Positions 12,633-25,747 of a stretch of 64,000 bases of DNA are shown piece by piece. Source of the stretch: Bacilli bacterium. GTDB lineage: Bacteria > Bacillota_I > Bacilli_A > RFN20 > CAG-826. The stretch's first letter is position 1. Each line of letters begins with the position of its first letter. The position numbers were made by a program, and so were the translations under genes. The notes beneath the pieces were generated by a model. That model ran no database searches. It was not told the DNA's origin and saw only the letters and a program-made list of their open reading frames with translations. The DNA lies in the NCBI GenBank assembly GCA_045116995.1, contig JBGUMU010000034.1, positions 15,854 to 79,853 on the forward strand, read 5' to 3'.

Positions 12633-13001
12633 ATGAAAAAAATCAAATTACCTTTAATCATTGCTGGTCTAGTGTTGGATGTTGGTGTTACCATCTTCCT
12701 TTTTGTCATTAGCATCATGATATTAGTTAAGGTTATCCCGGCTGCTACTATCAACGAAGCTATTAATAACTCTCAGAACTGGCCATTAATTCATTACCTA
12801 TTACAAAATCCAACAGTTTATCTCGTTGCGTTTGTCATTCCATTATTTGTTCTCTTGGCATTGAATGTTATTGGCTTAATTATTTACGTCAAGAAAACAA
12901 GTGGTGCCAAACCAGCACAACTCGATGATCTCTCTGAAGAACAAAAAGAAGCTCTCAGACAAGAACTTCTCAAAGATCTCCAAGGCGAGAAAAAAGAATA
13001 A
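12633..13001 (+). CDS. Small membrane protein (3 TM) with charged C-terminal tail
   Basis: MKKIKLPLIIAGLVLDVGVTIFLFVISIMILV... with C-terminal LSEEQKEALRQELLKDLQGEKKE. ATG 12633 is preferred over the upstream TTG. Confidence 0.6.
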   Translation: MKKIKLPLIIAGLVLDVGVTIFLFVISIMILVKVIPAATINEAINNSQNWPLIHYLLQNPTVYLVAFVIPLFVLLALNVIGLIIYVKKTSGAKPAQLDDLSEEQKEALRQELLKDLQGEKKE

Positions 13002-13354: not shown

Positions 13355-14224
13355 ATGTACGATTATGTTTTGGTAAGAAGACGTAGAAGAAGAAAGATCG
13401 CTGCATTAGTCAGTCTCATCTGTTCAATCGGCGTGACTGCATTAATCATCGTTTCATTCCTCGGACAATACACCGGTACTTTTACCGTTTCTTTAACCAA
13501 CTCATCTGTTAGATTGTCACTATCAGAAACTCAAAGTTTCGCTAATCCAACATCTTATCTTCGTATCGATAAGCTCAACTTATTCGAAGAGTCTACGTAT
13601 GTTAACATCAAAGACGAAGGTTTAGATGATGAAACAAAGGCTTATGACTGTGGCCAACACGAAATCAAAATCAAAAATAAAGATGGTAGTGTAACCACAA
13701 AGCAAGTCCTTTCCTATTTCAAGTACACATTCTATGTGGGTAACTTAGGGAGCAAAGCGGCGCAGTACGACATGCAAATTAAATTGTTGGAATGCTCGCA
13801 ATCCACGGATGGTACTAATAGAACTTTGGATGATACTTTAAGAGTTATGATTTATGAAAACGATATCGATGATGATAACAATTCGGGGGTTCATAATGTA
13901 GACGTCTATGCTAAAGAGAACGCTATAGGAAACATTGATATCGATGATGGCAACACAACACGTGAATTTATTTCTTCTCGTCCTAGAAGAGATTATTTAG
14001 GACCACAAAAAGAAGATGAAGATCACAAATTAGCTATTTCTTTCGAGAAATTGGATCTTATTCACACATACAGCCGAGATGGTTTCTTCGCAGGCCAAAT
14101 CCGTAGATATACATTAGTCTCATGGTTAGAAGGAGAGGATAGAGATTCTCTCAACAAACAAGGTACCCCTGTTGGTGCTACTTTAAAATTAGGAGTTGAA
14201 ATAACTGCTTATGAAAATGAATAA
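13355..14224 (+). CDS. Membrane-anchored paralogue P1 of the TasA-like family (degenerate cleavage motif; candidate anchor or base subunit)
   Basis: N-terminal RRRRRRK plus a TM (IAALVSLICSIGVTALIIVSFL), then QYTGTFTVSLT in place of GT-x-A-W-Y/F. It shares the mid-protein LRVMI box and the C-terminal SWLEGEDRD...LKLGVEITA with the paralogues. Confidence 0.6.
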   Translation: MYDYVLVRRRRRRKIAALVSLICSIGVTALIIVSFLGQYTGTFTVSLTNSSVRLSLSETQSFANPTSYLRIDKLNLFEESTYVNIKDEGLDDETKAYDCGQHEIKIKNKDGSVTTKQVLSYFKYTFYVGNLGSKAAQYDMQIKLLECSQSTDGTNRTLDDTLRVMIYENDIDDDNNSGVHNVDVYAKENAIGNIDIDDGNTTREFISSRPRRDYLGPQKEDEDHKLAISFEKLDLIHTYSRDGFFAGQIRRYTLVSWLEGEDRDSLNKQGTPVGATLKLGVEITAYENE

Positions 14225-15173
14225 AATTATAATTCCTGCTGCAATGTTAGCAGTGGGTGTCGCGCTCGTAGGTTCTGTTTCTAGTACCTTAGCGTGGTAT
14301 CAATACTCAACAAAAGCACAAGCAGCGTATATTGGAACCAGCGCCGGAGTTTCTGAAAACTTACAGATTCAAAATAAAAATGGTGATTGGGTTTCAAATT
14401 TATCTTCCTCCGATATCGCAGATTTAATGGAAACTGGTGTTGGTTCTGAACTCACACCAATCTCTCCTGCTATCGAGGGTAATTTAGATGCTACTTCTGC
14501 TCTACCAAATGGCGGTTTCTATAATAGCGTTGAAACTGGCGTTGGTGGTGTTGAAACATATGGTGATCGTAGAGCAAATAATAAGAATTACGTTGAATTC
14601 ACTTTAAAGATTAGATATTTGAAAACAAATTATGCCAATCCAAGCGATCCTTATGGTTATGCAAATAAAGCTTTAAAATTAGTCGATTTAACTATTCTCG
14701 ATGGATCCACAAACGCAGATTTGTACAAAGCTGTTAGAGTTCATATCTCTTCCGCTTCAGGAAACTACTTATTTATGAAGGATTCTACCACCAATGAAAC
14801 AGTCGAAACCGCCACATATGGTAAACTTGATACCGATAGTCGTGATGGTTTAGACACAGGCTGGGCGTATGAATGGGAATCTTCCCCTGAAATCGTTTAT
14901 GGTAAAGATGGATCAATTCAAACAGCGTACAATTCAAACTATTCCGCTGGTTTAAATAAACAAATCGGTGAACTTCCTGCAAGTAATGAAAACGGTTTAG
15001 CCGTGAAAGTTACTATTTGGCTTGAAGGATGGCAAAAATTATCCGGTGTTCCAACCGGTAACGCTGAAGCATCATCTGGTAGTTCTGCTATGTGGGATCC
15101 AACCGTTTATGCCAACAAGCAATTTAAGGTTGGTATGAGATTCCAAGCTGATGATATTCAACAAAATCCATAA
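14211..15173 (+). CDS. SipW-type signal peptide protein, TasA-like paralogue P2
   Basis: MKMNKIIIPAAMLAVGVALVGSVSSTLAWYQYSTKAQA, then AVRVHIS, then TIWLEGWQ...FKVGMRFQA. Overlaps P1 by 14 nt. Confidence 0.65.
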   Translation: MKMNKIIIPAAMLAVGVALVGSVSSTLAWYQYSTKAQAAYIGTSAGVSENLQIQNKNGDWVSNLSSSDIADLMETGVGSELTPISPAIEGNLDATSALPNGGFYNSVETGVGGVETYGDRRANNKNYVEFTLKIRYLKTNYANPSDPYGYANKALKLVDLTILDGSTNADLYKAVRVHISSASGNYLFMKDSTTNETVETATYGKLDTDSRDGLDTGWAYEWESSPEIVYGKDGSIQTAYNSNYSAGLNKQIGELPASNENGLAVKVTIWLEGWQKLSGVPTGNAEASSGSSAMWDPTVYANKQFKVGMRFQADDIQQNP

Positions 15174-15212
15174 TTGATATTTCGTCAAGGATTCGTTTTA
15201 TTTGGAGAATAA

Positions 15213-16370
15213 ATGATGAAATTCAACAAAGTTAAGTTTGTTGTAGCTGCTTTGTCCATGTGCTGCGGAGCCGCCCTCTTGGGTTCGATTTCAAGCACGA
15301 TTGCGTGGTATCAATTTACCACACGTGTATCTGCTGTTATCGTTGGTGCCTCGACAGGTGAGAAGAGCAATTTGAAAATAAGGATTAAAGGGACCAATAA
15401 TTGGAATTCCGACTTGACCTTTCATGATATCAATGAATATCTTGCGTCAGTCAACAAAGGCCAACAAATTACTCCAATTACTTCAGGATTTATGAATGCA
15501 GATGATCCTATTAAAAAAGATAATAACGATCAAATGATTTTTTACCAAAATCCAGGCGAAGAAGATATTGAAAGAGTACCTTATGATAGCCCTTCCTGGA
15601 GAAGAGCGGATGATTCCATGTATGTCTCAATTCCTTTAGAACTTTCATATATCCAAAAAGTCGAAGGAAGTGAACAATTCTTAGAAAAAGATGTGTATAT
15701 CTCTGATTTGCTAATTCAAGAAGATCGCAAAAATAGCATTAATGCTAAAAAAGATTTATCTGAAGCAATCCGTGTACACATCAGCACTTACCAAAGCAAC
15801 GACAAACAAAATACTGAGTTGAATAGATTAATCTCCAAAAATGGTGGAACCATACTGACCGAAGGCCATTTAGATATTGGTGGTGATGGTGATTTAGATG
15901 AATACATCGAAGGTCATCACGGACCAGACTATGGTTTTATTGATGAAGACGATACCGAAAGATACTATGTCACCTATGGTGAAGGTGTCCAAACAGCTTA
16001 CAGTAATCAATATGACGTTCAAGATAATTCATATAAGACACTTAGTGGTCAAACCATTAATGAAAAGGTTTATCCAACAGTAGTCAAATCTATTGATGAT
16101 TCCAACGTTTTAGATGAAGAAAGTTTTGAATATCAAAAAGAAGGCGAAACCGCCAAAACATCTAAATGTATTGGCAAGACAGTAGCCTTTGAAGGTGAGC
16201 AAAATGAAGCTTACCTCAATGTCGTTATGACGATTTGGGTTGAAGGATGGCAACCATTCCCTTCCCCAACGGCCGCTGATCCGAATGCAAAATCACCTAT
16301 CTGGAATGCATCGGACTATATTGGCTCAATGTTTGATGTCGGCATTGAATTTGCCGTACAACAAGACTAA
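15213..16370 (+). CDS. SipW-type signal peptide protein, TasA-like paralogue P3
   Basis: ..ALLGSISSTIAWYQFTTRVSA, then AIRVHIS, then TIWVEGWQ...FDVGIEFAV. Confidence 0.65.
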   Translation: MMKFNKVKFVVAALSMCCGAALLGSISSTIAWYQFTTRVSAVIVGASTGEKSNLKIRIKGTNNWNSDLTFHDINEYLASVNKGQQITPITSGFMNADDPIKKDNNDQMIFYQNPGEEDIERVPYDSPSWRRADDSMYVSIPLELSYIQKVEGSEQFLEKDVYISDLLIQEDRKNSINAKKDLSEAIRVHISTYQSNDKQNTELNRLISKNGGTILTEGHLDIGGDGDLDEYIEGHHGPDYGFIDEDDTERYYVTYGEGVQTAYSNQYDVQDNSYKTLSGQTINEKVYPTVVKSIDDSNVLDEESFEYQKEGETAKTSKCIGKTVAFEGEQNEAYLNVVMTIWVEGWQPFPSPTAADPNAKSPIWNASDYIGSMFDVGIEFAVQQD

Positions 16371-16488
16371 AAAATCCAGATAAACTCCATAAATATTTAT
16401 TAAACTTTTGAATAAGAAAATATCAGCAAAGTCTCATATACATATACACACATGAGGCTTTGCTGGTGTAAAATGAAAGAAAGGGTAT

Positions 16489-17697
16489 ATGAAAAAGACA
16501 ATTAATCCATTAAAACTAGTTATCGGTATTCTCGGCTTATCGTCAGTCGCTGCTTTAGTGGGCTCAATAAGTGGTACCGTTGCGTGGTACGCATATTCAA
16601 CGCGTGCTCTTATTTCATATACCGGCACTTCTGCGCAATCTAGTGCGCAACTTCAAATTGGCTTGAGAGCTACAGAACGTGTTCCGTTGCTTGACGAAGA
16701 TCTTTTAGTTGATGAAGTAATCGAAGAAAATGGTTATTTTTACTACTTCACACATCTCGGCTCAGGCGGTATGCCATCAAGTGTCATTAATAAATATCTC
16801 GGTGGTAGTGGCTTTGCTACAACTACATTGGAGCCTGTATCAACTTATAGTTATGATGGCAGTCAACCATTTGTTTTGAAAAACTGCCCAACAACAAACG
16901 AACCAGAAGAACGCTCAAATGCGCCAACATCAAAGTATGTTAAGATTCCATTTGCGTTCCGTGTGTTCAATACAATTTCAAACGGTCAAACCGTAACAAC
17001 ATCAGTCGCAAATAAAAACATTTATTTAAGCAATGCTGTCGCACAAGTTAGCAATGAAAAGCTTGGTATCGGTGAAGCAATCCGCTTGTTTGTTGATAGA
17101 ACTGATAATTTAAGCGACTATATTTTTAATCCAAACGCTGCAACTGATGGCTCAACCAAAACCGGTGGTGTCTTAGATCTTTCCGGTAATGGATATTTCG
17201 ATTATGACAACAATCCTTCTCATGGTGATATATATCTCCATGAATACATCTATGGCGATTATTCTTATAAGACTGGCTATGGATTAAATAGTGGCTACGT
17301 AAGTCAAGGTGCAAACGATAGCGACTATCATGACATTAACAAAACAGGTGTTGATACCACAGAAGAAGGATTTGATGGTACAACATTTACAGCTAAACAC
17401 CGTAGAGGAACAATGCATTTAGACTACAGCAATGGCGAAGAATTGGAAGACTACGTGACTTTAGGAACGGCTTCTTACCTTGGCAAGAGTTCTGTATTCC
17501 CAACCAAAACCAATGGTGTCCTCTCTGGTAATAACTTTGTTTGTAAAACAGCTGAATCAAACGTTTCCGAAAAGAATATTGGTTCATTTGACTTAACTGT
17601 TTATATAGAAGGCTGGGATCGTGCCACAATCAATCAACATGGTAATGAATATTTCAATCTCGGCTTAACATTCGAAATCGGCGCAACAAATAGCTAA
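16489..17697 (+). CDS. SipW-type signal peptide protein, TasA-like paralogue P4
   Basis: ..ALVGSISGTVAWYAYSTRALI, then AIRLFV, then TVYIEGWD...FNLGLTFEI. Confidence 0.65.
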   Translation: MKKTINPLKLVIGILGLSSVAALVGSISGTVAWYAYSTRALISYTGTSAQSSAQLQIGLRATERVPLLDEDLLVDEVIEENGYFYYFTHLGSGGMPSSVINKYLGGSGFATTTLEPVSTYSYDGSQPFVLKNCPTTNEPEERSNAPTSKYVKIPFAFRVFNTISNGQTVTTSVANKNIYLSNAVAQVSNEKLGIGEAIRLFVDRTDNLSDYIFNPNAATDGSTKTGGVLDLSGNGYFDYDNNPSHGDIYLHEYIYGDYSYKTGYGLNSGYVSQGANDSDYHDINKTGVDTTEEGFDGTTFTAKHRRGTMHLDYSNGEELEDYVTLGTASYLGKSSVFPTKTNGVLSGNNFVCKTAESNVSEKNIGSFDLTVYIEGWDRATINQHGNEYFNLGLTFEIGATNS

Positions 17698-17708
17698 TGA
17701 GGTTTAAC

Positions 17709-18815
17709 ATGAGAAAAAGAAATCTAATCATTTCTCTCATATTAGGAACTGCAGCACTTACTGTGCTGGCTATTCCTGTGGCCACAATTGCATGGTATGC
17801 AAGTAGCGATCGTCTTCAAGTTAATTCAATTGATTTGGATTTAAGAACAGACGAATCTGTTGGCTTACTTATTGGTACAAGCGCTGATGAAGAAGCTTTT
17901 AAAGAAAAACTTGAAACAAAAGACTTAAAAAAAGTTGGTGAGTTTGTTCCTACTTCCAGTATGTTCCAAGATAGTTGGATGAGCACTAAAAGTGATTTAC
18001 CATTATTCTATGATTCAACATCCGATGTTGCTCCAGATGGCATTCCATCTCTAGAAGTTAGTAATAAAGGCTTTTTCCAACAAAAGTTATATCTTTTAAA
18101 CAACATTGATTATTATGTCACACTAGATACTGAGCAATCCTTTGTCACAAGTGACAAAAACTCTAATCATTTACGCGCGCAGGCTCTTGTGGGTAAAGTC
18201 GGTTCATTAACTGTTGATGAAATCGAAGAAAAATTAAACAACTTAGAGAACAGTATTAGATTCTCCATCCTTGTCAATACTCCAAATTACTACAAATACT
18301 TCATTGTTAATCCAAACAAAAAGGAAAACGAAGTCACATATTACGCTGGTAGATTAGACAACAATGGTGATGGTTATTTCGATACTTTTCCAGCTCTTGA
18401 TAATAACAACCAAGTAATTGAAAAAGAGATTATCTATGGTGAAATCGAAAATCGTAATCAAATCGCTTATGACAATCCTCAAAGCGATACATTAGCTCCT
18501 ATTGAAGATTATGATCCGTTTAGACACAATTTCTTTGGTAACTCATTCGAAGGAAAGAGCAAAGAAACTGCCTACACTTACAATGAACAAAATTCACTCC
18601 AAGCGGGTGTTAAATATAAAGAAGAACCATCTATCTCATTAGATGAAATCGCTTCCGATGACAATCCATTATTAATCCCATGCTATAACGGTGTTCCTAC
18701 CGAAATAGTGTTATCCATCTATTTAGAGGGTTGGGATTTAGATTGTTACAACTCCACAATGGGAGCGAGCTTCAATGCACAATTATCTTTTAAATTATTA
18801 AGGGGGATTATCTAA
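17709..18815 (+). CDS. SipW-type signal peptide protein, TasA-like paralogue P5
   Basis: MRKRNLIISLILGTAALTVLAIPVATIAWYASSDRLQV, then SIRFSI, then SIYLEGWD...FNAQLSFKL. ATG 17709 (GAGG 6 nt upstream) is preferred over ATG 17697. Confidence 0.65.
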   Translation: MRKRNLIISLILGTAALTVLAIPVATIAWYASSDRLQVNSIDLDLRTDESVGLLIGTSADEEAFKEKLETKDLKKVGEFVPTSSMFQDSWMSTKSDLPLFYDSTSDVAPDGIPSLEVSNKGFFQQKLYLLNNIDYYVTLDTEQSFVTSDKNSNHLRAQALVGKVGSLTVDEIEEKLNNLENSIRFSILVNTPNYYKYFIVNPNKKENEVTYYAGRLDNNGDGYFDTFPALDNNNQVIEKEIIYGEIENRNQIAYDNPQSDTLAPIEDYDPFRHNFFGNSFEGKSKETAYTYNEQNSLQAGVKYKEEPSISLDEIASDDNPLLIPCYNGVPTEIVLSIYLEGWDLDCYNSTMGASFNAQLSFKLLRGII

Positions 18816-18816
18816 T

Positions 18817-20340
18817 ATGGCTTCTTATTTCGAATATTTAAGGAAAATGTTCCTTTCAGTCCTACAACACATCGGTACATTCCTTTATAAGGCATTTATC
18901 TCACCATGGACTGATTTAGGCCGTAACTTTGCAGTCTATAACGACTACATGGGTGAACACTGGGCAACATTCGGTCCAGTCGGCTGGATTTTCTGGGTTA
19001 TTTTCCTATTATTATTCATCGGCTTAATCGCTGGTCTATTATTCTTACTTATCGTCTTCTTCCGTAAGTATGTACGTTTCGTGCGTAAAGAATTGGACAA
19101 AGAAGAATTATCTAGACAAGTTGATAGACTTAACTATGAGTTATTCCAAGCCATCCAAGAAAAAGATAAAATCCTCAACCTTAAAGTTGGTTATATGGGT
19201 TTACGTGGTGGTGAATCTCAATTAGATAAAGAAAGCCAAGAAATCGTTGAAGAAGTCTCCTCTAGATTCCCAAAACTTATCCATGTTGATAACAAATATA
19301 GAGGTTCTAACATGGATATTCCAAATAGACCAAACTTATCCCTCGAAGAATTATGTAATGCCTTCCGTAACTTCGCTGCATCTCAATTGAAGTTATATTA
19401 TAGGGAAGACGTTATTAAACAATTATTTGCCGGTATGGCCGCCTCTAAGTTAATCATCTTAGAAGGTATCTCTGGTACAGGTAAAACATCCTTAGCGTTC
19501 GCTCTTGGTAAATTCTTCAATTTCGATAGTGCGATTATTCCAGTTCAACCATCCTGGAAAGATAGAAGTGAATTATTAGGTTACTATAACGAATTCACTA
19601 AGAAATTCAATGAAACTGAATTCTTAAGAGCGTTATACACAACCACCTATAGACAAGATTTAGACGTCATCGTCCTCGATGAAATGAACTTAGCCCGTAT
19701 TGAATACTACTTCGCTGAATTCTTATCCATCATGGAAATGAGAGATCCTAACGATTGGGTCATCGATTTAATCCCAGCCCCAATGGCTAATGACCCAGTT
19801 AACTTAAAAGAAGGTAAACTCTTAATTCCTCAAAACGTCATCTTCTTTGGTACCGCCAATAACGATGATAGTACATTCACTATCTCTGATAAGGTCTATG
19901 ACCGTGCGGTCTCTATCTTCTTTGATGATAAGGGCAGACCATTTGAATGCGCTCCTCAAGAAGCCATGAACGTTCCATATAGTCAAATTAGAAAACTATA
20001 TGATGATGCGATTACCCAATTCCCAATCTCTAGAGATATGTCCGACAAGTTCGAACAACTCGATAACTTTGTCATTAAGAAATTCAAACTCGCCTTTGGT
20101 AACCGTATCTTAAAACAATTAGAAACATTTATCCCAGTCTACGTGGCCTGTGGTGGTAAAGAAGTCGATGGTTATGACTTCATCTTCACTAATAAGGTCT
20201 TAAAGAAATTCGAATCTCTTAACATCGCCTTCTTAAAAGACGAATTAAAAGAACTCGATGCTCAATTAGACAAAATGTATGGCAAGGGTAACTTCAAAAT
20301 GGCCCATAGCTATATCGATAACTTAATTAAAAACAACTAA
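18817..20340 (+). CDS. Membrane-anchored McrB-family (AAA_5-type) AAA+ NTPase
   Basis: N-terminal hydrophobic hairpin (GWIFWVIFLLLFIGLIAGLLFLLIVFF). Walker A LEGISGTGKTS (19465-19491). VIVLDEMNLARIEYYFAEFLSIME can be compared with McrB DEINRANLSKVFGE. FFGTANNDDSTFTISDKVYDRA can be compared with McrB GxMNTADRS...D.AxRRRF. Confidence 0.8.
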   Translation: MASYFEYLRKMFLSVLQHIGTFLYKAFISPWTDLGRNFAVYNDYMGEHWATFGPVGWIFWVIFLLLFIGLIAGLLFLLIVFFRKYVRFVRKELDKEELSRQVDRLNYELFQAIQEKDKILNLKVGYMGLRGGESQLDKESQEIVEEVSSRFPKLIHVDNKYRGSNMDIPNRPNLSLEELCNAFRNFAASQLKLYYREDVIKQLFAGMAASKLIILEGISGTGKTSLAFALGKFFNFDSAIIPVQPSWKDRSELLGYYNEFTKKFNETEFLRALYTTTYRQDLDVIVLDEMNLARIEYYFAEFLSIMEMRDPNDWVIDLIPAPMANDPVNLKEGKLLIPQNVIFFGTANNDDSTFTISDKVYDRAVSIFFDDKGRPFECAPQEAMNVPYSQIRKLYDDAITQFPISRDMSDKFEQLDNFVIKKFKLAFGNRILKQLETFIPVYVACGGKEVDGYDFIFTNKVLKKFESLNIAFLKDELKELDAQLDKMYGKGNFKMAHSYIDNLIKNN

Positions 20341-20350
20341 TTAAAACACC

Positions 20351-22597
20351 ATGAAAAAAACGAGTAACAGCAATAAGCAGATCAATAGAGCCTACCATAG
20401 TGCGCTTAAGAAAATCATCAAAGGTTCCCACGAAAAGGAAATCTATGATGCTTTAAGCGCGGGTAAGAACTCTTATTTAAGACTTGATCGTTTAGCGTCT
20501 TCCTCGTTTGATAAGAGCTGGATTGAAGTGATTGAAGGCTGTATCTTCGATTTAGGCGAAATCATCGCTAATCCAAGACAACACACTAAAATCACTGGCA
20601 ACTTAACACCAGTTGAACTCGCTAAAAAGGTCACATCAGAATCTGTCCAACACTTAGCGAGCCATACTCAATATATTAAAGAAGTCGATGAATACGGAAA
20701 CGTCATCCCTTCTAAAATCTTATCCATGAGTAGTGATGATGATTTACATACTTATGAAAATAGATTTATCGCTACATTCGTAAGAAGATTATTCTTATTC
20801 ATTTCTAAACGTTATGAATTCGTTTCTAAATTCGCCGAATTACATAACGAAGAAATCCTATACTTTAAAAACAAATCCATCGTCGATGGAGCGGAAGTAG
20901 AAATTGAAACAAAGATTAAAGTCTCTTATAAGAACGAAAACGAAGAAACTAGAATCAACAGTGGCTACGTTGAAAGAATCAAACAAACTAGAGACTATAT
21001 TTCCTATTTCTATAACTCTCCATTTATGAAACAAATGAAGAATGAAAAGGATGTTAGAAATCCAATCGTTCAAACAAACATCATTAGAAAGAACCCTAAA
21101 TATAGACACTGCTACGAAGTGTATAGATTCATCGAAACCTATGACCGTTTAGGCGTGAACTATAAGGTCGATGAAAACTATTCCATGTTCAATAACGAAG
21201 AGTTGGCGGAACTCAATAGAACATTATTCGCTAACTACGTGACCTTAAGAGGTAATGATGGTAGTAGAGAAAAGAAAGTTAACACTAAAGTCTATAAGCC
21301 ACGTATCTTAACAAGCTTAGAAGATGAATCATTTATATATGGTCCATTACTTGAAGGTCCAATTTCTTTTGCACGTGTGGATGATGGTTATCAAGCCTAT
21401 TTAGATAGCAAGATTAAAAAAGACTTACCACTCCATCCAACTAAGAAAGAAAAAGAATATTACGAAGATGAATACGCTGCGAAGAAAGAAAATCAACAAG
21501 ATCAAAAAGCTAAAGCCGATTTATTAAAACGCAGACAAAAAGAAGTTAACGCTTTTGAAAAGAAAGTGAAGAATATCTTAGCAAAACGTGAAGAAGCGAG
21601 ATTAAAACTCATCGAAGCGGAAAAGAACGCCATTAGACAAGAAGAAGAAGACTTAGTCAACGCCATGAGAAGAGAAATCATTGCTGCTTCGCAAAAAGAC
21701 GTTACTGAGATTGTTAACGCTAATAATGGTGGCAAACCATCTAAGAAAGCCGCTAAAGAAGAAGTTAAGGAATATAATCCAACAGTTTCATTTAATGACG
21801 CTGCGGATGAGATTTGGCCACAATTAAATAATCCAACTCCATTACCAGTGGAAGAAAAGCCAGCACCTCAACCAGTTAAACCAGTAATAGTGGAACAACC
21901 AGTTCAAGCAGAATCTGCCCCTGAAGCTAAACCAGCGCCAGCACCTGCTAAAGTTGAAAAGGTCTACATACCAACTGTTAGCTTCAACGAAGCCGCAGAC
22001 GAAATCTGGCCACAACTTAATAATCCAACCCCAATGGCTAAACCAGTGGAAGAAGTTAAAGTGGCCCCAGCCCCTGCTAAGAAGGCTAAAGTGGTTAAAC
22101 CTGCTCCAGTCGTGGAACAAGCACCAACTGAACAAAAACCAGTGGAAGCTAAACCAGCCCCACAACCAGTCAGAGTGGAAAAGGTTTATGTCCCAACAGT
22201 GAGCTTCAATGATGCTGCTGATGAGATTTGGCCACAATTAAATAATCCAAAACCACTTCCTAAAGAAGAGCCTAAACCAGCGCCAGTGCAAAAGCCTGCT
22301 CCTAAAAAAACAGAACCAGCGCCAGCGCCTGCCAAGGAACCTGTTAAGGAAGAAGCAAAGCCAAAAGGCAAACCAATTAAAAAGTATTTCTATAGAAGTG
22401 ATGGTACAGTGGCCATCATCTATAAGAAAGATAAGGCTCATAAGGAAGAAAAACCTGCTCTTACAAAGGAAGAGCCTAAGAAAGAAGAACCTGTTAAGGA
22501 ACAGCCAAAGGCTGAACCTAAAAAGGAAGAAAAGAAAGAAAACAAACCACAAAATGTGGTGAAGAGTAAAAAGACCCGTAAGAAATTTAGAAAGTAA
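20351..22597 (+). CDS. McrC-position partner protein: N-terminal globular domain (DUF2357/McrC-N-like guess), coiled-coil, Pro/Ala/Lys-rich tail with three conserved 19-aa motifs
   Basis: 748 aa with no TM. TYENRFIATFVRRLFLF resembles the ENRF box I associate with McrC/DUF2357 partners (from memory). There is a K/E-rich coiled-coil around aa 380-460. PTVSFN(D/E)AADEIWPQLNNP occurs three times in a PAPxPxK-type linker. No PD-(D/E)xK nuclease motif is recognisable by eye. Confidence 0.5.
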   Translation: MKKTSNSNKQINRAYHSALKKIIKGSHEKEIYDALSAGKNSYLRLDRLASSSFDKSWIEVIEGCIFDLGEIIANPRQHTKITGNLTPVELAKKVTSESVQHLASHTQYIKEVDEYGNVIPSKILSMSSDDDLHTYENRFIATFVRRLFLFISKRYEFVSKFAELHNEEILYFKNKSIVDGAEVEIETKIKVSYKNENEETRINSGYVERIKQTRDYISYFYNSPFMKQMKNEKDVRNPIVQTNIIRKNPKYRHCYEVYRFIETYDRLGVNYKVDENYSMFNNEELAELNRTLFANYVTLRGNDGSREKKVNTKVYKPRILTSLEDESFIYGPLLEGPISFARVDDGYQAYLDSKIKKDLPLHPTKKEKEYYEDEYAAKKENQQDQKAKADLLKRRQKEVNAFEKKVKNILAKREEARLKLIEAEKNAIRQEEEDLVNAMRREIIAASQKDVTEIVNANNGGKPSKKAAKEEVKEYNPTVSFNDAADEIWPQLNNPTPLPVEEKPAPQPVKPVIVEQPVQAESAPEAKPAPAPAKVEKVYIPTVSFNEAADEIWPQLNNPTPMAKPVEEVKVAPAPAKKAKVVKPAPVVEQAPTEQKPVEAKPAPQPVRVEKVYVPTVSFNDAADEIWPQLNNPKPLPKEEPKPAPVQKPAPKKTEPAPAPAKEPVKEEAKPKGKPIKKYFYRSDGTVAIIYKKDKAHKEEKPALTKEEPKKEEPVKEQPKAEPKKEEKKENKPQNVVKSKKTRKKFRK
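21779..22249 (+). repeat. Three in-frame copies of a 57-nt unit encoding PTVSFN(D/E)AADEIWPQLNNP
   Basis: Copies at 21779-21835, 21971-22027 and 22193-22249. The peptide is identical except for one D/E, while the DNA differs at many synonymous sites. Confidence 0.9.
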
Positions 22598-22600
22598 TTT

Positions 22601-23479
22601 ATGAGCGAAGTAGTTAAAGAAAAACGCGTCAAGAAACCAAAAAGTAAGGCCAGAAAAATCGTGGAATGGATCCTTACTGGTATTTTCCTCGTGATTTTCG
22701 GTGTCGTCATGGCCGCTCAAATTGATGGTATGGTCCATAAGAATGATCACTATGGTCAACAAATTAGATTTGGCTATGGTACCTTCATGGTTAAGACCGA
22801 TTCTATGAAACCAGTGTACGGCATTGATACTGCTTTAATTACTTACTTAGAAGACGCTGATAAAATCTACGACCGTTTCCAAAAGGGTGAAACTGTCGAT
22901 ATCACATTCGTCCATGTTCCAGTGGCTAATAACGAATATACCTCTCCTAGAGATAATCCAGAATTAACCGTTAGAACTAATGCTAGTAGTGATAAGCAAG
23001 TGGACGGCATCCCTATGACCCATAGAGTGAGAGAAATCCACATCAATGAAAGTGTCGCTAAAGGTAAAGGTCGTTACACATTCATCACCGCTGGTATCAA
23101 TACCAGAAGTGAATGGATGGGTTGGCAAGAAGGTCAACCAGATATGGTTATTAACCAATATCAAGCGATCACAGAAAAAGAACTATTAGGTAGAGTGGTG
23201 GTTAACTCTCCATTCTTAGGTGGTGTCTTCTCATTTGTGAGTTCTGTATTTGGTTTATTAATCTTATTACTCATCCCAGCATTTTATTTAGTCATCACTA
23301 GTGTGATTGATATATTTAAGGCTTATAAAGAGCCTGAAGAAGCTAAAGAAGGAGCAGGAGCCACACCAAATAGTGGTGGTACCGTTACTCTTTCCGAAGC
23401 GGACAAAAAGAGACTTAAAGAGCAACTATTAGAAGAAATGATTGCCAAGAAGAAAGGAGAAAGCAATGAAAACAAGTAG
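22601..23479 (+). CDS. sipW: SipW-like (S26B, ER/archaeal-type) signal peptidase I with an enlarged extracytoplasmic domain
   Basis: N-terminal TM. VKTDSMKPVY can be compared with SipW SGSMEP (Ser codon 22802-22804). QKGETVDITF, then MTHRVREI compared with VTHRIVDI (catalytic His). A C-terminal second TM (FGLLILLLIPAFYLVITSVIDIF) as in SipW. The GDNN Asp box reads AGINT. Confidence 0.75.
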   Translation: MSEVVKEKRVKKPKSKARKIVEWILTGIFLVIFGVVMAAQIDGMVHKNDHYGQQIRFGYGTFMVKTDSMKPVYGIDTALITYLEDADKIYDRFQKGETVDITFVHVPVANNEYTSPRDNPELTVRTNASSDKQVDGIPMTHRVREIHINESVAKGKGRYTFITAGINTRSEWMGWQEGQPDMVINQYQAITEKELLGRVVVNSPFLGGVFSFVSSVFGLLILLLIPAFYLVITSVIDIFKAYKEPEEAKEGAGATPNSGGTVTLSEADKKRLKEQLLEEMIAKKKGESNENK

Positions 23480-25007
23480 AGGTCGATTAACTGCAGTTAT
23501 CATTACTGGTATCCTTCTCATCGTCGCCTTTGTCCTCGCGGGTATGGCGATGATTGGTCATGTCTTCGGTGATAACACCCCATTAGCGAATATCATGAAC
23601 GCTTCAGCCATTGGTATGACTGTTTTATTCGTTAGTAGTGTTTATCTTTTAGTTAGTAATCTTTCCATGATTAAGACTTTACAAGATGATAACGAATATA
23701 ACTTAGGTGTTAGAAGTGCCTTTAATAACATGTATGCCTTCCAAAAACGTGTGGAAGTCCTTTCTAGATTAAATAAAATCACCAAGAGACAAGAACACAT
23801 TATCGCCTTTACATTCTCCTCTCTTGTTGTTTCTCAAAACGTTAATAGAAACCATGAAATCTATTTAATCAACAATCACATCGCTAACTTCTTAAATGAT
23901 TTACCAACAAAGATTAACGCTAAGAAGAGAGACTTTGTTTATGCCTTCTCTCGTGGTTCTTTCTTAATCTACTGTGCAAAACAAAATGAACAATCCATTC
24001 AAAACATCTGCGAAATCATCGCTAAAGATATTTATGACTTTGGTGAACAAAACTGCCGTCATATCTGGGTCCAACCATTCTTCGGTGTCACCCGTGTCTA
24101 TGATAGTGAACTTTTAACTCACCAAATTGAAAACGCATTATTAGCTAGAGATAATTCTGAAAGAAACTTTGAAACAGTCACTTATTATCAAGAAACATTC
24201 CGTAAAAGTGTGGCCGCTAACGACATTGAAGAATTAACTCAAGCTTTAGAAAATAAAGAATTCGTTGTCTACTATCAACCAAAGTTTGACTTAGCTAAAA
24301 GACAATTTATTTCTTCAGAAGCTTTAATTAGATGGAACTCCAAGAAGTACGGCTTATTAGCGCCTACTAAGTTCTTAAATAAAGCCGAAGCTATTGGTTT
24401 AATCCATGATATTGATATCTATGTCTTAAGACAAGTTTGTGAAGATTTAAATGAACTTATTAGAAGAGGTAGAAGAGTCTTACCAGTCTCCGTTAACTTC
24501 TCCTTATATGAATTCTATAGTGCGAACTTCTTAGATACCATCATGGGTATCTTAGATGAATTCCATGTTCCAACAAATTTAATTGAAATTGAAATTACAG
24601 AAGCGACATCACAAGCTAACCAATTCTTATCCATCTCCATTATTAAGAAACTTAAAGAAAACGGTATTCGAGTCTTAATGGATGACTTTGGTATTGGTTT
24701 CTCTAACGTCGGTAACTTAAAGAAGATTCCATTCGACGTTGTTAAGATTGATAAATCATTTATTGATGGCATTGTTAACGACACTAAATCACGTGAAATC
24801 GTGAGATTCTTAATTGGTCTTTGTAAGATCAACGGTATGGAAGTCGTTGCCGAAGGTGTTGATAACAAAGAACAAGTTGAAATATTAAAGAAGGCGAAGT
24901 GCGATACAATTCAAGGTTTCTATTATTCTGAAGCTCTTGAAAAGAAAGCTTTCGAAAGATTCTTAGATAATAACCCATTTGAAAAGAAGGAGGGCGTTAA
25001 AGCATGA
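23466..25007 (+). CDS. Membrane-bound EAL-domain c-di-GMP phosphodiesterase with degenerate GGDEF-like middle domain
   Basis: Two N-terminal TMs. The EAL set appears complete: YYQPKF, SEALIRW, SVNFS, EIEITE, MDDFGIGFSN, VKIDKSF, VAEGVD, IQGFYYS. The GGDEF position reads SRGSF. ATG 23466 (AAAGGAG RBS) overlaps the sipW end by 14 nt. Confidence 0.85.
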   Translation: MKTSRGRLTAVIITGILLIVAFVLAGMAMIGHVFGDNTPLANIMNASAIGMTVLFVSSVYLLVSNLSMIKTLQDDNEYNLGVRSAFNNMYAFQKRVEVLSRLNKITKRQEHIIAFTFSSLVVSQNVNRNHEIYLINNHIANFLNDLPTKINAKKRDFVYAFSRGSFLIYCAKQNEQSIQNICEIIAKDIYDFGEQNCRHIWVQPFFGVTRVYDSELLTHQIENALLARDNSERNFETVTYYQETFRKSVAANDIEELTQALENKEFVVYYQPKFDLAKRQFISSEALIRWNSKKYGLLAPTKFLNKAEAIGLIHDIDIYVLRQVCEDLNELIRRGRRVLPVSVNFSLYEFYSANFLDTIMGILDEFHVPTNLIEIEITEATSQANQFLSISIIKKLKENGIRVLMDDFGIGFSNVGNLKKIPFDVVKIDKSFIDGIVNDTKSREIVRFLIGLCKINGMEVVAEGVDNKEQVEILKKAKCDTIQGFYYSEALEKKAFERFLDNNPFEKKEGVKA

Positions 25008-25747
25008 TCATGATTATTGGTAGCCAACATGATGATATCCTCTATTTCGAAAGTGTTATCACTAACAAAAGAGAAGAACTCATCATGGGCAAATTCAAAG
25101 TGACCATTGGTACCATCTTTAACCAAGCGGTCATGTTAGTGGATCAAGTTAAATCTAACTACTTAAGTAGCGCTCTTACTTTATATTTGATTGAAAAATA
25201 CTTCGTCATCCTTGTTTTAGTGGTGGGCCGTTGTGTGGCTTACACGAAAGACTTAAAACCATTAGACATCGTTATCTCTAAGCATGTCGTCTTAGGGGAC
25301 GTTGACCAAGTTAATGAAGATAACGTTAAATACGGACAAATCCCAGGCTTTGAACAAGTCTTTGATGCCTCTGAAGACGTTGTCTCCTATATTGAAAGTG
25401 CTTTTGAAAAGAGAACATACTCTGTCTTTAAAGAAGCTAACTTCATTTCCACATCTGTGGACTACCATAAGAAAGAACAAATCTATGATATCCATGAATT
25501 TGATCATATCTTAGGCTATGACACTAATGTGGTCTTTGACACCAATACCGGTGGTGTTGCTGTCGCTTGTAACTTAACTAAAGTGCCTTTCGTCTCGATT
25601 AAAGTCGTGGAAAGATACTTAGAAAAGAATAGTGATGTCAATACATACTTAAAAGCGATGAAAGAATATGTGAATATCGGTAAAGCTGTTGTTACCTGTA
25701 TCGGTGATATTGGCCGTAACGAAATCATCACAGAAGGAGGTAAGTAA
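25004..25747 (+). CDS. MTA/SAH-nucleosidase (PNP_UDP_1) homologue with degenerate active site
   Basis: Collinear with E. coli MtnN: MIMIIGSQHDD vs MKIGIIGAMEEE; LKPLDIVIS vs LKVGDIVVS; KYGQIPGFEQVF vs EYGQLPGCPAGF; VPFVSIKVVERY vs VPFVVVRAISDV. The catalytic or ligand positions (E12, SGIGK, TGSAGG, EME, SD197) read D, QVKSN, VGRCVA, DTN, VE. The ATGA overlap with the upstream stop is at 25004-25007. Confidence 0.6.
   Translation: MIMIIGSQHDDILYFESVITNKREELIMGKFKVTIGTIFNQAVMLVDQVKSNYLSSALTLYLIEKYFVILVLVVGRCVAYTKDLKPLDIVISKHVVLGDVDQVNEDNVKYGQIPGFEQVFDASEDVVSYIESAFEKRTYSVFKEANFISTSVDYHKKEQIYDIHEFDHILGYDTNVVFDTNTGGVAVACNLTKVPFVSIKVVERYLEKNSDVNTYLKAMKEYVNIGKAVVTCIGDIGRNEIITEGGK

Follow-up and report, generated by a model that had tools for sequence, protein, structure and literature searches.

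Why does a McrC-like bacterial protein carry the same short tryptophan-centered peptide three times in its C-terminal tail? The question is raised by a 64,000-nucleotide (nt) stretch of DNA from a Bacilli bacterium (contig JBGUMU010000034.1 of assembly GCA_045116995.1), here called the window, in which the repeats are encoded by the gene for protein P0001. We found that the motif is real, anciently duplicated, strongly selected at the peptide level, family-wide, helical in structural models, confined to disordered tails, and variable in copy number. We consider it fairly probable that the copies serve for docking, as portable and multivalent acidic helices on a flexible tether. P0001 has neither a signal peptide nor a transmembrane (TM) segment and is therefore presumed to be cytoplasmic. 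The gene and its three motif copies are as follows (AF2, AlphaFold2 prediction).

20351..22597, plus strand: gene of the McrC-like protein P0001 (748 aa; open reading frame [ORF] with translation), carrier of the motif
21761..21844, plus strand: W-motif copy 1, EVKEYNPTVSFNDAADEIWPQLNNPTPL; 19-aa core at 21779-21835; AF2 helices at aa 481-488 and 490-493
21953..22036, plus strand: W-motif copy 2, VEKVYIPTVSFNEAADEIWPQLNNPTPM; core at 21971-22027; AF2 helix at aa 545-552
22175..22270, plus strand: W-motif copy 3 with a conserved extension, VEKVYVPTVSFNDAADEIWPQLNNPKPLPKEE; core at 22193-22249; AF2 helices at aa 619-626 and 628-631

The motif of P0001 reads PTVSFN(D/E)AADEIWPQLNNP and starts at aa 477, 541, and 615. 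The copies are, in order, PTVSFNDAADEIWPQLNNP (nt 21779), PTVSFNEAADEIWPQLNNP (nt 21971), and PTVSFNDAADEIWPQLNNP (nt 22193), with start-to-start distances of 64 aa and then 74 aa. On re-examination, the coordinates, peptides, 64/74-aa spacing, and codons quoted in the initial annotation of the stretch were all exact, and VEKVY(I/V) does precede copies 2 and 3. The element described there as a 19-aa motif is indeed repeated three times, but the conserved unit is longer (approximately 28 to 32 aa) and includes VEKVY(I/V). The PKPLPKEE extension of copy 3 was seen again in three further proteins, P0137, P0143, and P0128, which are discussed below.

The nucleotide sequences of the units indicate how the repeats have been maintained. 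The 57-nt units differ pairwise by 14, 7, and 11 nt, and the sole residue change is D/E in copy 2. With the exception of this change and of a switch between the serine codon families TCA and AGC, all differences are synonymous and at third positions. Between copies, the Nei-Gojobori (NG86) proportion of synonymous differences (pS) was 0.82, 0.41, and 0.78, values at which synonymous sites are saturated or nearly so; the nonsynonymous proportion (pN) was 0.04-0.09, and dN/dS was <0.1. We also simulated random nucleotide changes in the unit in 100,000 runs and scored the outcomes with at most one residue change. With 14 or 11 changes, such an outcome was never obtained, and with 7 changes its frequency was 4.4e-4. 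This synonymous/nonsynonymous pattern, together with the contrast in conservation between motif and linkers described below, bears out the proposal of peptide-level purifying selection.

The age of the repeats was assessed by comparison with L007, a locus of a related metagenome-assembled genome (MAG). Orthologous copies in the window and in L007 are 6, 9, and 6 nt apart, in comparison to 7-14 nt between the paralogous copies of the window, and the TCA serine codon of copy 1 is common to both loci. Thus, the triplication is older than the split of the two lineages, and the copies have not been homogenized by gene conversion. An explanation without any peptide function, by recent tandem duplication, gene conversion, or constraint at the DNA or RNA level (for example, through antisense ORFs), is scarcely credible in view of these data. 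It can draw on the fact that units do recombine, since a strain variant with one precisely deleted unit exists (see below). However, it is refuted by saturated synonymous sites under a fixed peptide and by orthologous copies that are closer than paralogous ones. Furthermore, a nucleotide-level constraint would hold the third positions, yet these vary, and it is the plus-strand frame that is conserved in more than 1,000 homologues. The earlier statement that the repeats are not a recent DNA duplication therefore stands.

Two long antisense ORFs, 21842-22237 (minus strand, 131 aa) and 22238-22762 (minus strand, 174 aa), overlap the tail-coding region. Conservation lies in the plus-strand frame, so the two ORFs most likely arise incidentally from the Pro/Ala/Lys codon composition.

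We then asked how far the motif extends beyond the window. P0001 has more than 1,145 homologues, nearly all from gut or rumen metagenomes and labeled as Bacilli, Bacillales, Erysipelotrichaceae, or Tenericutes MAGs. The motif was present in every one of the 121 homologues examined, with 1 to 6 copies: one copy in 7 proteins, two in 11, three in 34, four in 43 (the mode), five in 23, and six in 3. Absence from orthologues, which had been named as the finding that would speak against a functional motif, was thus not observed. Across the 436 motif instances, W never varies and the P after it hardly does; A(+4), I/V(+8), V(-1), and Q(+11) are present in 86-100%. Conversely, 436 of the 453 tail tryptophans fall inside the motif. 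The median start-to-start spacing is 67 aa (315 intervals). In one clade, the consensus is (V/I)Y-x-PTV(S/T)F-x-(D/E)AA-x-EIWPQL-x-NP-x-P(L/I); in the other, it is (M/A)SHP-x-S-x-PVTY(D/E)EA-x-x-EIWPQ-x-x-NAP. A HPYSEPVTYDEA..EIWPQ variant also occurs. The flank type is clade-specific and common to all copies of one protein, and there is a positional signal as well: motif copies of one protein had a mean identity of 0.625 to one another; across proteins, the mean was 0.537 for copies with equal ordinal position and 0.486 for copies whose ordinal positions differed.

Comparison of three-copy orthologues with N-terminal domains (N-domains) 76-82% identical to that of P0001 showed 74-100% identity in the motifs and 29-56% in the linkers. 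The motif is therefore the best-conserved part of the protein. The two linkers of P0001 are distinct from the units in both composition and predicted order.

21845..21952, plus strand: linker between the extended copies 1 and 2; Pro/Ala/Glu/Lys-rich and disordered (pLDDT, the AF2 confidence score from its predicted local distance difference test, below 50)
22037..22174, plus strand: linker between the extended copies 2 and 3; Pro/Ala/Lys-rich and disordered (AF2 and composition)

The first of these linkers is 29-89% identical to its counterparts in three-copy orthologues, and 29-55% identical where the N-domain is ~77-80% identical. Linkers had been characterized initially as freely variable. 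Their sequences do drift (29-56% identity) and tolerate indels, but their P/A/K/E composition and their length, 42-64 aa in three-copy orthologues, are kept.

Copy number changes at the level of whole units. A strain-level variant of P0001, P0004 (also P0005), has two copies instead of three: exactly one unit is deleted, and the junction lies in frame inside the motif. P0004 and P0001 are near-identical over aa 1-480 (N-domain and coiled coil) and 93% identical in the tail. From this precise one-unit deletion, we conclude that units are gained and lost as whole modules. In the assembly of the window, a short contig (C29, 2,921 nt) contains the 3' end of a McrB-like gene (94% identical) and a P0001 homologue that is 70% identical and has four W-motif copies. 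Rather than a second locus, it most likely represents a variant strain or species that was co-binned.

To place the motif in the protein, we built an AF2 model of P0001 from a 103-sequence alignment. The model and the alignment delimit the following additional elements.

20351..21457, plus strand: N-terminal McrC-type domain, aa 1-369 (many invariant alignment columns; transitive DUF2357 assignment; AF2)
21458..21721, plus strand: single long helix, aa ~370-458 (AF2 helix 372-458, pLDDT 84-94)
22364..22438, plus strand: basic beta-hairpin, the second tail element, KGKPIKKYFYRSDGTVAIIYKKDKA, aa 672-696 (AF2 strands 676-681 and 687-691, pLDDT 67-80)
22562..22594, plus strand: basic C-terminal peptide KSKKTRKKFRK (family consensus [S/T]RK[K/G]F[R/K]K; C termini of 121 homologues)

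The N-domain was predicted with moderate confidence and includes a predicted long beta-hairpin at aa 167-192; the long helix behind it is likely to form a coiled coil, as judged from the model. The tail has a pLDDT of <40, save for the hairpin (67-80) and islands of helix at the motifs (10-residue block pLDDT 61-72). At copy 1, for example, the block reaches 72 and the flanks are at <40. Each motif has a net charge of -3, no basic residue, and a helical hydrophobic moment of 0.41-0.52, while the linkers and the C terminus become increasingly basic toward the end (+4, +5, +4, and +9; the last value is the net charge of aa 698-748). Taken together, the predictions depict a flexible tether bearing amphipathic helices that are acidic and have a Trp-Pro cap. 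A conserved short island with local helical propensity in fast-evolving, low-complexity disorder has the features of a short linear motif or molecular recognition feature. A membrane-binding amphipathic helix was considered and rejected, as each unit has three acidic and no basic residues.

The same charge pattern fits self-association of the sticker-and-spacer type, in which the acidic aromatic motifs would bind the basic hairpin, the C terminus, or the linkers, within one molecule or between neighbors, and thereby cluster the machines into a condensate or patch or autoinhibit the tail; no separate folded partner would then be recruited. Acidic units (-3) are regularly spaced in a tail with basic linkers and a basic end, spacer length is uniform (median 67 aa), copy number is variable, and nearly all tail aromatics sit in the motifs and the hairpin. 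However, near-invariant A, I/V, W, P, and Q across deep divergence, together with clade-specific flanks, point to a stereospecific interface. The proposed basic counterparts are also less constant than the motif. The hairpin, with the consensus G(R/K)x(I/V)K(K/I)xFxR(S/Y)DG(S/T)xV(I/V)IY and one copy in the window, was found in only 23 of the 121 homologues, and the C-terminal module varies by clade while the motif stays. The family has two alternative C termini, which are the basic (S/T)RK(K/G)F(R/K)K peptide, as in the window, and a domain of ~50 aa, GRFIVKTxxGYYVxxxKYSxYKEDAKVFDDFNLAxDIKKxxGGKVVKL, which is also present in L009, a related locus lacking the motif. Neither of them had a Pfam match. 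We regard self-association as unlikely.

The hairpin also bears on a further explanation, that of a degenerate folded repeat whose units (strand VYVPTVSF plus helix) would pack together or onto the hairpin or the C-terminal module. In those 23 homologues, the hairpin is repeated 1-2 times according to a regular-expression count; there are two copies in L001, L002, and L003 and three in L005, the third of which was missed by the expression. The repeated hairpin often lies directly upstream of a 'KPVSFEQAADEIWPQL' W-motif, which could correspond to a beta-beta-alpha unit. In addition, a weak, subthreshold Pfam match to the first helix of PqqD was obtained (E 0.004, 17.8 bits versus a cutoff of 23.4). 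On the other hand, AF2 returned isolated helices with no strand pairing for VEKVY and a pLDDT of <50 between units, the linkers (42-64 aa) are long, of low complexity, and prone to indels, and single-copy proteins keep the motif. Comparison of the hairpin-plus-W units with the second type of C-terminal domain gave an hhalign probability of 0.2%. The PqqD-like match and a match to a carrier domain of a nonribosomal peptide synthetase (NRPS; P0141) reflect a generic 'A..EIW' helix. A folded repeat is thus quite improbable.

Several kinships for these elements were tried and dropped. Kinship of the motif with PqqD/RRE (PF05402) was rejected, since the 17.8-bit match remains below the 23.4-bit cutoff, covers only profile positions 13-30 of 67, and contains no stretch that is significant alone. 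Descent of the hairpin-plus-W units from the second type of C-terminal domain (IVKT..GYYV..GGKVVKL) was unsupported (hhalign, 0.2%), as was a DUF2188-like nature of that domain or of the hairpin (1.3% and 0.4%, respectively). The hairpin had a weak Pfam match to DUF2963 (E 0.09).

To determine how specific the motif is, we searched a 32-column motif profile against 1.84 billion (1.84e9) representative proteins. There were 20 matches at E<=1e-3. Two were unrelated, namely, the NRPS carrier domain of P0141 and a cadherin-like repeat. The other 18 carry the motif, and 17 of them are members or fragments of the P0001 family. The exception, P0137 (locus L019, 3357-4034), has a TM helix at its N terminus, then a single W-motif (KKAYTPTVSFEEAANDIWPQLNDPKPLPKEE), a linker of the P/A/K/E kind, and finally DUF2188 (E 2e-15). 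AF2 predicted a helix at its single motif copy, too. The gene directly follows two genes with TasA-type signals and a SipW-like peptidase gene, and genes with carbohydrate-binding modules (CBMs) of the CBM26 type are nearby. Its relative P0143 (L017, 929-2104) is itself a SipW-like peptidase, and its cytoplasmic C-terminal tail is composed of a W-motif, a P/A/K/E linker, and DUF2188. The motif is present in only 2 of 105 homologues of P0137 and P0143; the others have acidic linkers. Amylase and CBM loci (L020 and L021) harbor motif-less relatives. These contexts suggest that surface proteins for starch degradation are displayed in a SipW-dependent manner.

A search restricted to short proteins revealed a degenerate motif copy, HVDFWQIAREVWPQLDNPKPLPKEE, in P0128, whose relatives in the assembly of the window are multi-TM proteins with acidic cytoplasmic linkers; otherwise, it returned mostly tail fragments from contig ends. 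Judged by sequence, the motif is thus a portable module of the cytoplasmic disordered tails of membrane-associated proteins, found in three SipW-linked contexts. Separately, a small DUF2188 protein that lacks the W-motif is encoded on contig C55 (3894-4259) of the window's own assembly; its N-terminal tail, (AKKPAAKPAPAKK)n, is histone-like.

In which machine does P0001 operate? No Pfam-A or NCBIfam family matched P0001, its isolated units, or its tail, apart from subthreshold matches. However, the tail-less distant homologues in L012 and L010 (~372 aa) match DUF2357 (PF09823) with E values of 6e-14 and 1e-12, and the tailed homologue P0080 does so with 1.4e-5. A Foldseek search of the P0001 model against PDB gave nothing at E<=0.001, the model being of low confidence outside the long helix, and neither the protein nor the family profile yielded more than noise when searched against PDB sequences. 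The McrC kinship therefore rests on the DUF2357 matches of homologues and not on the fold. Via these homologues, P0001 can be assigned as the McrC-like (DUF2357) partner of a membrane-anchored NxD McrB-like GTPase, which is encoded next to it.

18817..20340, plus strand: upstream, membrane-anchored McrB-like AAA_5 NTPase (PF07728, E 4e-5; hydrophobic stretch at ~aa 53-82)
22601..23479, plus strand: downstream SipW-like signal peptidase (partial NF046067 match, E 1.5e-7, below cutoff)

The NTPase has Walker A (GISGTGKT) and Walker B (DEMN) motifs and the sequence NNDD at window position 19858 (aa 348), and its hydrophobic stretch is followed by a charged, heptad-like segment, a candidate for the FtsB-like TM plus coiled-coil part of CoCoPALM GTPases. 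NNDD corresponds to the shortened NxD signature plus a second Asp described for the CoCoNuT/CoCoPALM branch in passages of Bell et al. 2024 (PMC11090510). The P0001 gene starts 11 nt past the stop codon of the GTPase gene, and 3 nt lie between the stop codon of the P0001 gene and the start of the SipW-like gene. The position of the SipW-like gene is kept in all related operons; in the distant loci L010 and L012, the genes found there, judged by eye, look SipW-like as well. Upstream, there are genes for five paralogous secreted proteins. Four of them (14211-18815) have '(S/A)T(L/I/V)AWY' just past a hydrophobic N-terminal segment, and by eye these N termini appear to resemble SipW-cognate signal peptides. 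The first (13355-14224) has a basic-plus-hydrophobic N terminus without this box. Genes for two EAL proteins and a (degenerate) nucleosidase-like protein lie downstream, and the arrangement is syntenic in all related loci. The secreted proteins look fibre-subunit-like, and P0001 would be an uncharacterized fibre-assembly protein of a rumen bacterium.

The combination of an NxD McrB-like GTPase, an adjacent DUF2357 McrC homologue with a coiled coil, and a signal-peptidase-family gene is that of CoCoPALM. According to passages of Bell et al. 2024 (PMC11090510), who named the system in that year, it is abundant in Bacillota and its McrC homologues carry coiled coils; the system is given a few sentences there, with treatment left to a later publication. 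The passages on which we draw mention neither a repeated Trp motif nor a P/A/K/E-rich tail. In the literature, we found no experimental study of CoCoPALM and no follow-up paper. Since tail-less CoCoPALM loci exist (L010-L013) and L009 has an acidic tail without the motif, the W-motif tail is a clade-specific addition to CoCoPALM McrC homologues.

The gene content of the operon is also relevant to the possibility that the motifs are processing or modification sites, that is, released peptide cores or substrates of a protease or of a Trp- or Ser/Thr-modifying enzyme. An identical core with variable spacers is superficially like a multicore precursor peptide, and the weak PqqD-like signal would fit as well. 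But the motifs follow a conserved cytoplasmic domain of 460 aa, and an export signal is absent. Furthermore, no radical-SAM enzyme, cyclase, or prenyltransferase was detected among the ten operon ORFs scanned (13355-25747), and no conserved cleavage sites were found beside the units. We consider such sites highly improbable.

In the same operon, the C-terminal tails of the SipW-like protein (23387-23455) and of a 127-aa membrane protein (12921-12995) end in similar cytoplasmic helices, TLSEADKKRLKEQLLEEMIAKKK and LDDLSEEQKEALRQELLKDLQGEKK. Every related operon, the motif-less L009 among them, retains these helices, which may represent a second shared docking element.

We propose the following working model for the docking function. 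The unit is a module of ~28-32 aa, (V/I)Y-x-P-T-V-(S/T)-(F/Y)-x-(D/E)-A-(A/V)-x-(E/Q)-(I/V)-W-P-(Q/N)-(L/I)-x-N-(P/A), that would form a short amphipathic helix, acidic and with a Trp-Pro cap, in which F, A, I, W, and L could make up a hydrophobic face. The units would be strung on disordered Pro/Ala/Lys/Glu-rich linkers of ~45-55 aa in the C-terminal tail of the McrC-like protein, become folded when bound, and keep a folded partner, in one or more copies, at the cytoplasmic side of a SipW-dependent machine for fibre secretion and assembly. The number of units (1-6) would adjust avidity or stoichiometry. As candidate partners, we infer the ranking McrB-like GTPase ring, then SipW-dependent preproteins or the translocation apparatus, then the nucleosidase-like or EAL proteins, and finally self-association. 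The ring is attractive in that the McrB-like protein is the most conserved of the operon (88-95% identity across motif-bearing operons) and the maximum of six motif copies equals the number of subunits in a ring. Canonical McrB rings have six subunits.

Several observations weigh against this docking model. The confidence of the motif helices in AF2 was moderate rather than high. There was no sign in the P0001 model that the motifs pack on the N-domain, and in the model of P0137, inspected for docking on DUF2188 in cis, the motif was an isolated helix (pLDDT ~60) that added no strand. No operon gene appears together with the motif, since L009, the nearest relative without it, does not differ in operon content. 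In the assembly of the window, the motif is present only in P0001 and in the C29 variant, and thus it is not a widely shared hub motif. Finally, the SipW-DUF2188 loci examined (12-23 kb) contain amylase and CBM genes but no McrB-like gene, which weakens the case for the GTPase as the sole partner. As for the initial proposal of functional docking motifs rather than a recent duplication, function and age held up; docking itself is probable and fits the helical islands in disorder, the lability of copy number, and the portability.

A more far-reaching version would make the W-motifs a portable 'address tag' for SipW-dependent secretion machines, with the tail, through up to six copies, gathering presubunits or the translocation/translation apparatus and handing them to the McrB-type GTPase. 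We think it doubtful. If true, an NTP-driven, restriction-enzyme-derived motor would be coupled to the assembly of surface fibres, and the tag on SipW-DUF2188 proteins would connect this partner with further sets of substrates, for instance amylolytic proteins of the surface. To our knowledge, fibre biogenesis of this kind has no characterized precedent.

The docking model, in which acidic helices on a tether hold a folded partner, has practical consequences. As a conserved, portable peptide of ~30 residues, the unit could serve as bait and as an experimental handle on the CoCoPALM partner and on the target of the motor. The motif could also help to address the question of what links a McrBC-type GTPase pair with a signal peptidase and with secreted fibre subunits. 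The motif also offers an annotation signature for one large clade that is now without a domain assignment beyond the N terminus. Tandem linear motifs on disordered tethers are well studied in eukaryotes and thinly documented in bacteria, and the motif adds a clear bacterial case.

How does the tail compare with known systems? The motif has not been described before and has no entry in Pfam or NCBIfam; linear motifs in tandem on a disordered tail are a known kind of element. The host operon shares with CoCoPALM, as outlined in the passages of Bell et al. 2024 (PMC11090510), an NxD McrB-like GTPase with a TM segment and a putative coiled coil, a DUF2357-type McrC homologue downstream of it, and a signal-peptidase gene. 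It differs in its motif tail from loci with tail-less McrC homologues, such as L010 and L012. No nuclease domain was recognized in P0001 in the Pfam and fold searches. The 20 C-terminal residues of Bacillus subtilis SipW activate matrix genes (Terra et al. 2012, as cited in PMC8767453). This is likewise a short cytoplasmic tail with a role apart from the peptidase, and the W-motif of P0143 lies in a C-terminal tail of just this SipW-like sort. The window instead has the motif on the McrC-like protein, and the tail of its SipW-like protein has another conserved helix, LSEADKKRLKEQLLEEM. Nevertheless, the B. subtilis tail is a precedent for a functional cytoplasmic tail in such machinery.

In its architecture, the tail of P0001 is similar to tandem WH2 repeats, which are found in Spire, Cordon-bleu, and the Vibrio proteins VopL and VopF: 3-6 amphipathic helices of ~20 aa on short, Pro-rich disordered linkers, with variable copy number. 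By analogy, the repeat architecture suggests that several copies of a partner may be gathered. There is no sequence similarity between the two, and an LKKV-type element is absent from the P0001 motif, which is acidic, capped by Trp-Pro, bacterial, cytoplasmic, and part of a secretion-linked machine. Small units on extended Ala/Pro-rich linkers, in copy numbers that vary by lineage, also occur in the E2 component of 2-oxo-acid dehydrogenases, with its Ala/Pro-rich swinging-arm linkers and 1-3 lipoyl domains, and in terminal-organelle proteins of Mycoplasma (Mollicutes), which have acidic Pro-rich domains with EAGR boxes. Some relatives of the MAG that contains the window are labeled Tenericutes. 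In E2 and in the Mycoplasma proteins, the units are folded domains or Gly/aromatic boxes, whereas the unit of P0001 is a helix of ~12 residues in an island of 28-32 aa.

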